In this document: positions 41,308 through 62,724 of the stretch, one piece after another
Position numbering within the stretch: position 1 is the first letter of the stretch
Layout: each line of letters opens with the position of its first letter
Source of the DNA: a virus
Length of the DNA: 64,000 nucleotides
Reading direction: 5' to 3' (one strand)
Virus record (IMG/VR): IMGVR_UViG_3300006754_000011
Span: 1-64,000 of that record
The notes under the pieces: generated by a model
Seen by the model: the letters and a program-made list of their open reading frames with translations, nothing else
The model's database searches: none
Told to the model about the DNA's origin: nothing
Program-made: the position numbers and the translations under genes

Positions 41308-41585
41308 TATTTTTTGATTGAAATACTTTTTCTTACTTTACGACAGCTAAATCAATCTTTCACTGTGTAGTAAGCAGCACCTCCTATTGCAACGCTAATC
41401 ATTATGAGCATAGTTATAATAGAAAGCATTAGATTAATCTGTATTTTTTTAAATATACTTCAGATATTTTAATTAGTTTGTACAGCTTATTACAAAATGA
41501 ATGATTTTTTAGAAGTAATCCTATGGAGTTATTGCACAGGATTAGCTATAGTTTTACTTTATAAGTTTATTCAAGACACTGAAAA

Positions 41586-41876: not shown

Positions 41877-42965
41877 TTACCCAATAGCAGGTGCTAATAG
41901 AGCAATAGGGGTAGATTCAGTGCTTGCTAAATCAAGAGGGAAATTATGAGCATTACGCTCATGCATTACCTCCATTCCTAAGTTCGCTCTATTGAGGACA
42001 TCAGCCCAAGTAGGAACTACTTTTCCATCAGCAGAAAGAATTGATTGATTAAAATTAAAACCATTCAAGTTAAAAGCCATTGTGCATACCCCCATTGAGG
42101 TAAACCAAATAGCTACTACAGGAAAGACAGCAAGAAAGAAATGAAGTGAACGGCTATTATTGAACGAAGCATATTGGAAGATCAAACGACCGAAGTAGCC
42201 ATGAGCTGCGACGATATTGTAAGTTTCTTCCTCTTGTCCAAATTTATATCCGTAGTTCTGAGATTCAGTTTCAGTTGTTTCTCTAATGAGTGATGATGTA
42301 ACCAAGGAACCGTGCATAGCAGAGAACAAAGAACCTCCAAACATTCCCGCAACTCCCAACATATGGAAAGGATGCATAAGGATATTATGTTCCGCCTGAA
42401 AGACAAACATAAAGTTGAACGTTCCCGATATCCCCAATGGCATACCGTCAGACAAACTTCCTTGTCCGAACGGATAAATGAGGAAGACCGCAAAGGCCGC
42501 TGATACTGGTGCAGAATAAGCAACACAAATCCAGGGACGCATCCCTAGTCGATAGCTAAGTTCCCATTGTCGTCCCATGTAAGCAGAGATACCAATGAGG
42601 AAGTGGAAGATGATAAGTTGATACGGTCCACCGTTGTAGAGCCATTCATCAATTGTCGCAGCTTCCCATATTGGGTAAAAATGCATTCCGATTGCGTTTG
42701 AGCTAGGGACGATTGCTCCTGAGATGATGTTGTTTCCATAGAGAAGGGATCCAGCAATAGGCTCACGAATCCCATCAATATCGACGGGTGGAGCAGCTAT
42801 AAACGCAATTATGAAACAGGTGGCAGCAGTTAAGAGACAAGGAATCATTAATACACCAAACCAGCCTACATAGAGGCGGTTATTTGTTGATGTAGTCCAG
42901 TCACAAAACTCTGTCCACCCATTTAACATAGCGCCAGAATTACGCTGAGTAAGAGTGGAAGCCAT
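41877..42965 (-). CDS. psbA: Photosystem II D1 protein, Prochlorococcus-like, intron-free
   Basis: Full-length D1 ([14 protein letters not shown]...[13 protein letters not shown]); Prochlorococcus-type segments [42 protein letters not shown]. Confidence 0.99.
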
Positions 42966-59490: not shown

Positions 59491-61785
59491 TTACTTTTTA
59501 ACTTTGTAATAATTTTGATCTTCTCGATTTAAAAGTCTACAAAGAGAAAAAGCATCCAAGCCAGAATCAAGAGCTACAAAAGCACTCTTTGATTTATCAA
59601 AGATAGTTAAATGATACTGGCCATTCTCATCGAGTAATAGGTTATAAAGTTTAACTACATTTAATTGATGTGGTTCAGTAGTAGTCATTTGTTAATCATC
59701 CAATTCTTTAATGAGTTTTTTTAAAGCTTGATCAAGTTTTTTACCTAATCGTTTCAGGTTTTCAATTTGATCTGGAATAGACATTGACATGTAAAATTCC
59801 AACTCTTCTTCATAAGTTTTTTCAGGCATTAATTTCTATCCGATTCAGCTTTCTCTATTTTCGCATCTAGAAGACGTTGATCTCTATCAGAGATATCCGC
59901 TTCATGTAATGCATAAAGAAGTCTAGACTGAAGCTCATAACATTCAGCCCTCCAAACAAGACTGCCATTACGATTAGCTTGTTTAATTTGTTTTTCAGCT
60001 AAGTCGCTAAGTCTATAAAGTTCTGAGAAAGACATTTCAACATTAACTTTTTTCATTAGCCTTTTTTAATAGTGGTGAGCTTTAAATACTTTTCATAAAG
60101 TTCTCCCATCTTTGGTTCAGTTTTAGATGATTTCCACATCTGGCGTAAGATTAGTTCGAAATCATCTATTGGAATGACTACTGAAAGAGAACCGTTCATG
60201 TAAGGTTCAGTCATTAAATTTCCTCAAATGTTTGATCGCCATCAATGGCATATTTATTTTCAAGTTCTCTCCTGAATTCTTCTTGTCTCTCTTCATAATG
60301 AGGATCAAGTTTATTCAGAAAATCTTTGAACATAAAATCAGTTATTGGTTTTCCGTTGAGAATCATGGATAAGCTCCTGTACTTTTTGTTGACATTCTTC
60401 AATTGCTTCGTCACTTAAATGAGAAGCAAAAGAATTAATCAGCTCAGTACATTCATTAGCCTTTTCATCAGTCGAAGCTGTGATATAAAGAACTAATGCT
60501 TTAACTAGAGCTGTGCGGAATTCTGCTTCTGATTGAGAAACAGTTTTGTAAGGATCAGTGGATTGAATAAATCTTTGGTGGATGGTAGACATTAGTAATT
60601 ACAGATAGTTGAATGTAATTTTTTTGTATCCTGATAGTACAAATCAACATCACATTTACATGATTTAGATACATGGTGAGCTGTATCTATAGCAACGTCA
60701 TAAGGCATTGTTCCATTTTCTTTAGGAACATTCTTACAACGAAGATCAAGATAGTGAGAAGATTTTAATTTCATAATTAAGAATGCAAAAGTTGGTGTTG
60801 ATTCCAAGCATTTTCATACCTTTCATTAGAGGTATGACCTAAGTAAGCATTGTTTAGATCAGCATCAGTAGGCTCCCAATAAATGATCTCTTCAAGACGC
60901 TCAATGATTTCTTCAATCATTTCTCTATGTTCTGGAAAGAGCTGTTCGTCTTGCATATCTCTTTTATCTTCTCTCTTTAACATGAGCTGAAGATCTTTAT
61001 TCATAGCCTCAAGAATAGTTAGTTCACTCATTAGGATTCCTCCTTCAATGTATCTACACATTCACTTTGACATTCCTTATCATCAGGAGTACAAGTGGTA
61101 ATACATTGGAAATAATCTTCTACTGGATCTTCATCATCCCATTCATCTTTAATAAATAACTTAGAAGCTTCTAGTTCTGCGTGGTTTTTAAGATGAACAC
61201 AGAAAGTAATAAACATATTAAATTCTTTAGGATTCTTAAAATCCTTTTGATTTAATTCATAAAGTTTCCAACCTCGTCCTTTAGTTCTAAAAGTTCCATC
61301 AGAACAATCATCCATATAACGTAACATTTTCAATGCACGAAATGCATAAAGAGCTGGTGGATGAGAAGGAATAAAAGAATGTTTCATAAGATTGTTTAAG
61401 ATTTGTGACCTTTAGGAAATCCGTGCAAGTGAATACTTTTTTGTTCACTTAAAGAATAAACATGACATGTATAAATAGCAGCACTTCTTAAAGGTTCATT
61501 AGGCTCTAGTCCAGTAACTCTTCTGAATGTTTTTTCATCTTTACCTGCTGTGCAATAGTAGCCATAAAGGTTTAACCAAGAATCATCTAACTCAGCATTA
61601 TCTAATGCTTCAGCACGTGTTTCTAGTTTTTCAGAATGATAAACATCCATATCAAAAGTAGCTGTACCTAAGTGTCTAGGTTGATCTCCAATAGATTCAG
61701 GATCTTGAAAGTCTACAGGTTCGTTATATTTTATATAACGCAGTACTTCCCAATAAGCTTTTCCTAAATGTTCATCAAAAGTCAT
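59491..61785 (-). other. Array of short co-oriented early-type hypothetical genes
   Basis: At least eight 65-130-aa ORFs, many stop/start coupled. Confidence 0.6.
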
Positions 61786-61796
61786 AATTAAAATTT

Positions 61797-61859
61797 GTAA
61801 CAGGGTGTACTACACAAACTTGTCCTTTAGGTTTATAATACTTTTGTAGCAACCGCTAC
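61797..61859 (+). promoter_or_regulatory. Promoter with two NtcA-type boxes (61797-61810, 61846-61859) flanking a TATAAT -10 (61834-61839)
   Basis: GTA-ACAGGGTG-TAC, then 23 nt, then TATAAT; GTA-GCAACCGC-TAC over the predicted start site. Confidence 0.65.
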
Positions 61860-61863
61860 TAAA

Positions 61864-61922
61864 CGTTCACCTTATGTAATATAAGGCGCAGTTCGACTCA
61901 AGCCAAGGAACGGGGACTTGAG
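61864..61922 (+). ncRNA. Glutamine-II (Downstream-peptide) riboswitch
   Basis: P1 CGTTC/GAACG, P2 CCTTAT/ATAAGG, CGCA..CGAC core, GGAACGGGG, pseudoknot CTCAAG/CTTGAG; upstream of a YRG peptide gene. Confidence 0.85.
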
Positions 61923-61941
61923 CATTTATCGGACTAAGATC

Positions 61942-62100
61942 ATGAATTCACTTCTTACTTATCGCGGAGTTAAGTACTCTAAGCACGACGTTCAGAAAGC
62001 TGTTGCAAAAAATGCAGAAGAGCTTTCACAAACTAAATCCCCGTTGGTTTACAGACGTATTAATTATCGTCCAGAAATCACAGTAACAAAGACTAAGTAA
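61942..62100 (+). CDS. DUF4278-family peptide (riboswitch-controlled)
   Basis: MNSLLTYRGVKY...LVYRRINY; ATG at 61942 preferred over the track TTG, which lies inside the riboswitch. Confidence 0.8.
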   Translation: MNSLLTYRGVKYSKHDVQKAVAKNAEELSQTKSPLVYRRINYRPEITVTKTK

Positions 62101-62134: not shown

Positions 62135-62377
62135 ATGGAAGATAAATCGCCTATCTATGATTTAAATCTGGAAGATTTTATGAGGTACTTCGATCCAGGA
62201 GATCCGTATCATCTTTCAGGTTTAAAAGAATTACAAGACAACATACCGAAGCGTCTTCTACGTAGCGATGCTGAATGGTTTAAGACGTGGAGCCAATCTG
62301 GCAAACGTGCAGATCCTTATTATCAGAATTCAATACCACAATATTTTTGGCCTTATAAAGAGAGCCAGTTTTATTAA
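62135..62377 (+). CDS. Small helical protein resembling a cyanophage lysin-associated domain
   Basis: LEDFMRYF..GDPYHLSGLKELQ..IP..LL...AEWFKTW. Confidence 0.45.
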   Translation: MEDKSPIYDLNLEDFMRYFDPGDPYHLSGLKELQDNIPKRLLRSDAEWFKTWSQSGKRADPYYQNSIPQYFWPYKESQFY

Positions 62378-62724
62378 GTTAATACAAAATAAGAACATTC
62401 TTCTGCATCTAATTCAGGGATGTCTAGCCGACAAGAATTACCATAATAATGTGTGCATTGATGACAAGATTTTTTAGACTTTAAACTAAGACTGTTTTTT
62501 ATTTTAGTAATAATTTTTTTATTACTTAGATACTCTTCATATTCATCTGCAGTTATCTCATAAGTAGTAGCTTTGTATCCACACTGATTACAACGTTTTC
62601 TTCTACGTCTTAAGAAAGTCTTTGAGTTCCCATGGTTATTACCTCCTGAAGGACGTGATTCTATAACCTGAAATGTTTTTTCAGAGCACTTAGGACACTT
62701 ACTAGGTTCTCTTATAAAAGCCAT
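62374..62724 (-). CDS. NrdR-like N-terminal Zn-ribbon protein
   Basis: KCPKC...VIESR...RRRKRCNQCGYKATTYE; no ATP cone. Confidence 0.7.
   Translation of the reverse strand: MAFIREPSKCPKCSEKTFQVIESRPSGGNNHGNSKTFLRRRRKRCNQCGYKATTYEITADEYEEYLSNKKIITKIKNSLSLKSKKSCHQCTHYYGNSCRLDIPELDAEECSYFVLT

Follow-up and report, generated by a model that had tools for sequence, protein, structure and literature searches.

The regulatory unit analyzed here is of a kind already known, represented by the host PMM1846/yfr6-type unit and, as its type-1 analogue, by gifB. In Prochlorococcus MED4 the PMM1846/yfr6 unit consists of an NtcA motif lying over the transcription start, a type-2 glutamine riboswitch and an IF17-like DUF4278 gene (Klaehn et al. 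2018, PMC6212724; Bolay et al. 2018, PMC6316151), and repression resembling that of gifB was inferred by the authors (PMC6212724; also PMC6316151). The MED4 element binds L-glutamine and is a translational ON switch (PMC6212724, PMC6698751), with the mechanism discussed in PMC6698751. In Synechocystis, the promoter of gifB (encoding IF17) is repressed by NtcA and its leader contains a type-1 glutamine riboswitch (PMC6212724). We found no published mention of a second NtcA site at gifB. On the viral side, T4-like cyanomyoviruses have NtcA promoters (Sullivan et al. 2010, PMC3037559), and we found no published account of a phage-borne unit that joins NtcA, a glutamine riboswitch and DUF4278.

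The phage locus shares with PMM1846/yfr6 the series -10 hexamer, 6 nt, GTAGCAA..GCTAC, 1-5 nt, Glutamine-II aptamer, ~20 nt and short YRG peptide. It differs in that the high-light loci have a TAGACA -35 where the phage cassette has an upstream box, in that two YR motifs and a conserved C-terminus of its own (YRRINYRPEITVTK) are found in the phage peptide, and in the addition of an 80-aa open reading frame. With gifB it would share the sensing of 2-oxoglutarate via NtcA at the promoter and of glutamine via an ON switch in the leader RNA, and the product is likewise a DUF4278 protein. In contrast, the aptamer of gifB is of class RF01739, and IF17 has 149 aa with a glutamine synthetase-binding C-terminal part that the phage peptide lacks.

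The cassette and its phage

The stretch under study is positions 1-64,000 of IMG/VR virus record IMGVR_UViG_3300006754_000011, and we refer to these 64,000 nucleotides as the window. The full record is 74,205 bp in length and estimated to be 87% complete. It encodes terminase, capsid and tail proteins, a family-A DNA polymerase and a primase-helicase, and psbA is found at 41877-42965. The presence of psbA identifies the record as that of a cyanophage, and the source is an uncultured marine one; near-identical DNA is present in marine metagenomes of about a dozen studies. The best matches of the psbA gene are those of Prochlorococcus phages (77%), and the host is probably Prochlorococcus. The polymerase is no more than 46% identical to that of any catalogued phage. 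Like the T4-like cyanomyoviruses this phage would exploit host NtcA and the 2-oxoglutarate signal, but it is not itself T4-like (74-kb record, family-A DNA polymerase, primase-helicase).

The cassette lies on the + strand, with leftward genes flanking it on both sides. The flanking genes thus run in the opposite direction, which indicates that the cassette is a self-contained insert. Its features are, in order:

61797-61810, palindrome without assigned strand: box 1, GTAACAGGGTGTAC, of the form GTA-N8-TAC, read from the sequence and placed 23 nt before TATAAT
61811-61816, + strand: -35-like hexamer TACACA from a promoter scan, 17 nt before the -10; a consensus match only
61834-61839, + strand: -10 hexamer TATAAT, read from the sequence and invariant across the aligned phage relatives
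61846-61859, palindrome without assigned strand: box 2, GTAGCAACCGCTAC, a perfect NtcA-type palindrome read from the sequence, 6 nt after the -10
61861-61922, + strand: Glutamine-II (type 2, Downstream-peptide) aptamer, RF01704, full length 1-60
61923-61941, + strand: linker from the aptamer to the start codon, with no clear Shine-Dalgarno sequence and very variable among relatives
61942-62100, + strand: gene for a 52-aa basic DUF4278/IF17-like peptide (LTYRGvkY ... LVYRRINYRPEITVTK), from Pfam and the family profile
62135-62377, + strand: ORF2, 80 aa, 34 nt after the peptide gene

At 62374-62724 the - strand encodes a protein of 116 aa in which an NrdR-type zinc ribbon is recognized (PF22811, E 5.4e-9). 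This gene converges on the end of the cassette, and its stop codon overlaps that of ORF2.

A DNA search of the cassette region against catalogued phages gave no match, and the peptide alone as a query against IMG/VR found nothing. Relatives were reached only via an alignment of 21 peptide homologues. They comprise one IMG/VR contig and 14 metagenome contigs, and 13 loci can be read into the promoter.

Aptamer, peptide and ORF2

The match to RF01704 scores 73.8 bits against a gathering score of 33 (E 5.9e-16), and is the only Rfam match in the window. In the cmscan alignment the P1 and P2 stems form pairs none of which is flagged as non-canonical, and the pseudoknot strands CGUUC and GGAACG are both present. 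The aptamer of the relative L002 scores 68 bits; the sequence of its P1 stem differs, yet the stem pairs. The phage cassette has this single canonical aptamer together with its two boxes.

The aptamer lies in the 5′ leader just before the short open reading frame, ending at 61922 with the ATG at 61942. Conservation within the leader is lowest in the intervening linker. Within it we found no conserved alternative pairing, anti-RBS element or expression platform hiding the start codon. Only 31 of 147 loci have TGAA[CT], complementary to the 5′ strand of the pseudoknot, close to the AUG, compared with 11 of 147 in a control stretch. The best duplexes between aptamer and linker are no stronger than those formed with shuffled linkers (-9.9 vs -11.3 kcal/mol), and no region of the aptamer is favored. 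A 7-bp pairing in the window, AGUUCGA with UCGGACU, was considered as a conserved switch and rejected, as it is not kept in L002.

Among the contigs of X20, a metatranscriptome run of marine origin, one of 102 nt is 100% identical to the window over 61894-61995, corresponding to the 3′ half of the aptamer and the first 18 codons of the peptide. The contig gives a weak hint that the cassette is transcribed. Flanking genes have no cover in X20, but uncovered stretches carry no weight in this run, and contigs cannot show a 5′ end. Otherwise X20 mostly matched the conserved aptamer core of other organisms.

Glutamine-II-like aptamers occur elsewhere among viruses. In a scan of IMG/VR (loci L003-L109) there were 80 unique viral upstream regions, 11 of which have GTA-N8-TAC close before the aptamer; one of these, L072, looks like a chance match. 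Most of the remaining viral aptamers follow sequence of coding appearance, without an obvious promoter or box.

The peptide matches DUF4278 (PF14105) with E 1.8e-4 and 22.2 bits, which is under the 25.3-bit cut-off and covers profile positions 3-35 only. All 21 members of the family match PF14105 at E <=0.01, the best at 7e-5. A profile of the host riboswitch-linked peptides matches all 21 phage-family members (E 2.7e-6 to 4e-3, Z=1000), and the YRG-type repeats can be aligned, LTYRGvkY and LVYRRinY of the phage with LTYRGknY and LTYRRnvY of the host. By tblastn at E 1e-3 no host peptide was found, and the peptide profile gave only chance matches to metalloproteinases among solved structures (E >=0.1). 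The family alignment has 23 invariant columns including the run YRRINYRP, which points to clear constraint on the family. From GGAACGGGG to the start codon the distance is 26 nt, and in host loci it is mostly 24-29 nt.

From the length of 52 aa and the restriction of the DUF4278 match to positions 3-35 we judge the C-terminal region of IF17 to be absent. The peptide cannot be a full IF17 because it is too short for the part that binds glutamine synthetase. IF17-like proteins of Prochlorococcus also lack this C-terminal part (PMC6212724). The suggestion in the original prediction that the peptide may modulate host glutamine synthetase is speculative. In some distant relatives from metagenomes (L283-L286, 60-63% identity) the peptide is longer, with an N-terminal extension of about 25 residues before the YRG (MSPIELQARLKERK... 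in L283). Where these contigs reach the promoter (L284-L286), the longer peptide lies behind the same promoter, box 2 and aptamer.

We saw no terminator-like site between the peptide gene and ORF2, and the two are probably co-transcribed. ORF2 is kept beside the peptide gene in L002 (67% identity). Only seven homologues were found, 69-83% identical, confined to this phage lineage and with no Pfam domain; the Pfam match of ORF2 itself is noise and its Atlas matches are uninformative.

The promoter and its two boxes

TACACA and TATAAT with their 17-nt spacing make 10 of 12 matches to the promoter consensus, and host loci have a -10-like hexamer at the same offset as the phage TATAAT. Box 1 is centered at about -41.5/-42.5 from the predicted start, the position of a class-II activator, and its distance from the -10 falls within the 22-23 nt between GTA-N8-TAC and TAN3T of NtcA-activated (class II) promoters. 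Box 2 covers the predicted start, an operator position, and thus has the arrangement of NtcA-repressed promoters of the gifB/PMM1846 type, with the consensus over the -10 or the start. The original prediction had named both boxes, the TATAAT and the 23-nt spacing, and direct reading of the sequence finds all of them where they had been placed. Its assignment of activator-type spacing to box 1 and of an operator-type position to box 2, 6 nt after the -10 and over the predicted start, holds. So too do the glutamine-II/Downstream-peptide fold that it had proposed, now recovered by the Rfam search at 73.8 bits, and the YRG-motif DUF4278 gene, where LTYRG is present and the sub-threshold DUF4278 score of 22.2 bits is accompanied by the host-peptide profile matches.

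Two other roles for box 1 were considered and rejected. As an activator site for the divergent gene at 61396-61785 it would lie 12 nt from the start codon, with no fitting -10 on the minus strand. As a direct repeat of the RpaB HLR1 type its repeat spacing is 12 nt, not 10 (compared by eye).

Box 2 is strictly maintained. Each of the 13 phage-lineage loci that can be read here keeps its GTA and TAC, with changes confined to the central bases, and natural variants in other samples differ only in the spacer base 61854 and by one A added after the box. Nearly all promoter-bearing host loci have GTAGCAA..GCTAC at a distance of 6 nt from the preceding -10 and of 1-5 nt from the aptamer that follows. 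The host yfr6 transcript starts ~20 nt 5′ of the motif (PMC2864571), a position that fits the placement of box 2 as an operator. We conclude from this pattern that box 2 is most likely a conserved operator of a previously known type, with predicted binding of NtcA. The Synechococcus host loci L137 and L153 retain the upstream GTA-N8-AAC, but in the place of box 2 they have a 15-nt palindrome of another sequence (GTTGAGACTCTCAAC and a variant of it), a hint that some paralogues may answer to another regulator.

The history of box 1 is different in phages and hosts. Within the phage lineage the perfect form, GTA..TAC, is confined to the window and to L273, an identical copy. In 11 of the 13 readable loci the box is imperfect; by form, GTA..AAC occurs in three loci of the lineage and GTT..AAC in nine. 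Every lineage relative that reaches this point nevertheless keeps GT-N10-AC at the same offset. Variation is restricted to the center and to positions 3 and 12, with the outer GT and AC fixed, and a concentration in the center is what a dimer-bound site would be expected to show. Two further groups of phage loci, L088 and L026/L047/L092, have box 2 and lack box 1. In a second phage lineage (L067/L085) the region ~70 nt upstream of the aptamer has three NtcA-like boxes, with GTT-N8-AAC at the box 1 offset, then GTAGTAATCGCTAC, then box 2. Here GTAGTAATCGCTAC is a perfect box that ends 8 nt before TATAAT, and box 2 begins six nt after TATAAT.

Conservation of the upstream box extends to the hosts. 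We compared 39 unique loci that have box 2 and no TAGACA/TGGACA -35 (31 host, 8 phage). GTA-N8-NAC occurs 48-50 nt before box 2 in 23 of them (22 host loci and the window), as against only five matches at any other offset among the same 39. The host sites belong to 22 distinct loci of Synechococcus and non-high-light-type Prochlorococcus, in which GTA-N8-AAC lies 22-23 nt before the -10. These loci therefore have the same series as the phage, GTA-N8-NAC, 22-23 nt, -10, 6 nt, perfect GTA-N8-TAC and aptamer, and differ in that their upstream box is always GTA-N8-AAC where the window has the perfect GTA-N8-TAC. They share T.TGTA(t/a)Ca...tGAAC. The right half is GAAC in all 22 and never TAC, and its G and A, which lie outside the filter, carry 2.0 bits each. 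A single A-to-T difference separates the host-type GAAC from the perfect consensus of the window.

High-light Prochlorococcus (the high-light group among host loci L112-L229) has TAGACA, 18 nt before TATAAT, in place of box 1. On sequence comparison TAGACA versus GTA-N8-AAC is a clade-level difference in promoter design. The absence of a second box from published accounts may be explained by the TAGACA that the MED4 type has at this position, and we found no published description of the upstream box of the Glutamine-II loci of Synechococcus and non-high-light-type Prochlorococcus.

The occurrence of the dual-box layout at 22 host loci implies that the layout came with the cassette. As read from the alignments, it is the host standard outside high-light Prochlorococcus and not a phage invention. 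The original prediction had held the stacked NtcA logic to be the unusual part, and this is not supported as stated. It had proposed the conservation of both boxes in related contigs as a check; GTA/TAC is kept in 13 of 13 for box 2, and box 1 is perfect in the window and L273 only. Its overall interpretation stands for the riboswitch class, the peptide, the spacing of box 1 and the position of box 2, but not for the novelty of the dual box.

Regulatory logic and significance

The reading that we favor, with a probability of about 0.7, is that of a host-type nitrogen-status cassette in which the box 2 operator and the glutamine ON switch together form an AND gate, with box 1 as a probable weaker tuning site. 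We infer NtcA binding and the sign of each effect from the features, spacing and conservation observed. The cassette would have a sigma-70-type promoter (TACACA, 17 nt, TATAAT) with an NtcA-type box on either side. Under nitrogen shortage, with 2-oxoglutarate high, NtcA would occupy box 2 and block transcription, as proposed for gifB and PMM1846. The transcript would begin with the canonical Glutamine-II aptamer, an ON switch in the host and presumably here, and high glutamine would allow translation of the 52-aa peptide and probably also of ORF2. The two controls would thus act as an AND gate, with product made only in nitrogen-replete infected cells. Box 1, at the class-II activator position, would probably be a weaker NtcA site tuning the promoter; as the promoter has its own -35-like hexamer, activation may be dispensable.

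The place of box 1 in this scheme depends on whether it is an NtcA site. In the same host genomes the amt1 promoters have GTA-N8-TAC, GTA-N8-GAC and GTA-N8-AAC, and the ntcA promoters GT(N)-N8-TAC. The use of GTA-N8-AAC at amt1 indicates that the AAC form is a natural variant of the NtcA type. The strictness of the host GAAC suggests selection for something other than the best affinity for NtcA, and the pattern fits either a deliberately weak NtcA site or the site of another protein. By its conservation, box 1 is probably a second, weaker NtcA site that tunes the promoter and was inherited with the cassette.

It is possible, though we doubt it, that only box 2 matters. The locus would then be a simple unit of the gifB/PMM1846 type, in which box 1 was inherited with little or no function in the phage, and its perfect consensus in the window would be a neutral single-base change. 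The diagnostic bases of box 1 do differ among phage relatives (GTA/GTT, TAC/AAC), so that the perfect consensus could be drift; close relatives change at positions 3 and 12, where the GTA/TAC of box 2 never changes. High-light Prochlorococcus manages without box 1, with TAGACA as a -35 in its place, the phage lineages noted above have box 2 alone, and the window promoter has a usable -35-like hexamer. Set against this, GT-N10-AC is found at the exact offset in all lineage relatives that can be reached and in the 22 diverged host loci, the second phage lineage L067/L085 keeps GTT-N8-AAC there, and the variation of box 1 sits in the center, as for a dimer-bound site.

A more elaborate circuit, which we put forward tentatively and think rather improbable, is that all promoter-bearing type-2 glutamine-riboswitch genes of Synechococcus and non-high-light-type Prochlorococcus, with their phage copies, carry a dual-site NtcA incoherent circuit, retuned in this strain by the change from weak to perfect. 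If this is true, the site at the activator position (TGTA-C-N5-GAAC) is weak by design and is combined with a perfect operator over the start, and the circuit would be an undescribed one, perhaps one that keeps the polymerase poised or gives a pulse at nitrogen upshift.

It is unlikely that box 1 is the site of a protein other than NtcA, recognizing TGTA(t/a)C-N5-GAAC in picocyanobacteria of the non-high-light type. Such a protein would account for a GAAC that is invariant in 22 of 22 host loci and never takes the TAC preferred by NtcA, and the Synechococcus genomes encode an NtcA paralogue scoring 70-81 bits. However, the Prochlorococcus genome G003 has box-1 loci and lacks such a paralogue; beside NtcA it has only one distant CRP-family match and no strong NtcA paralogue, and the high-light genome G004 has a weak CRP-family match comparable to that of G003. 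The geometry is moreover exactly that of NtcA (3+8+3, GT-N10-AC, 22-23 nt before the -10), GTA-N8-AAC is found at an amt1 promoter, and the phage strain of the window tolerates, or prefers, TAC.

A band-pass response, the proposal of the original prediction, or a pulse seems similarly improbable. NtcA at box 1 would recruit RNA polymerase and NtcA at box 2 would block it, giving a peak at intermediate NtcA activity or a burst on upshift. The canonical class-II spacing of box 1 (23 nt to the -10), the operator position of box 2 and the conservation of the pairing in hosts and phages are all consistent with this. In the hosts, however, the operator is perfect and presumably the stronger site and the upstream box is imperfect, so that with rising NtcA activity repression would be expected to precede activation, whereas a band-pass requires the reverse order. 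The sites are also 48-49 bp apart center to center, ~4.6 helical turns, and so do not lie on the same face of the DNA.

Coincidence of a short motif frequent in AT-rich DNA is ruled out as the origin of the pair by the conservation of the layout across phage relatives and hosts, and we give it a negligible probability. GTA-N8-TAC is singly common, with 19 occurrences in the window against 12.7 expected, and pairs 10-60 nt apart arise in 129 of 1000 dinucleotide shuffles (13%). By contrast the full layout (box, 20-24 nt, TAN3T, 4-8 nt, box) was found in only 4 of 1000 (0.4%; mean 0.004 per shuffled window). Four of the 19 boxes are intergenic, two of them being box 1 and box 2, and box 1 alone among the 19 is followed by a consensus TATAAT -10. 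The looser TAN3T lies 20-24 nt away on one strand for seven other boxes, six of which are inside genes. A further intergenic GTA-N8-TAC (41480-41493) follows psbA directly on its downstream side and has TATATT on the minus strand at a distance of 22 nt; from its sequence it is a possible candidate for an NtcA-type promoter of the next leftward gene.

If the AND-gate cassette works as inferred, an IF17-like peptide would be made only in infected cells that are nitrogen replete. The phage would respond to two metabolites of its host, sensing 2-oxoglutarate by way of NtcA and glutamine by way of the RNA, and its gene expression would be linked to the nitrogen status of the ocean. It would also provide a natural test of the role of the abundant, uncharacterized peptides of picocyanobacteria. 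The upstream GTA-N8-AAC box at the 22 host loci may be of more general use. It predicts that the published picture of repression by NtcA, which derives from the high-light strain MED4 with no such box, does not fully describe Synechococcus and non-high-light-type Prochlorococcus.
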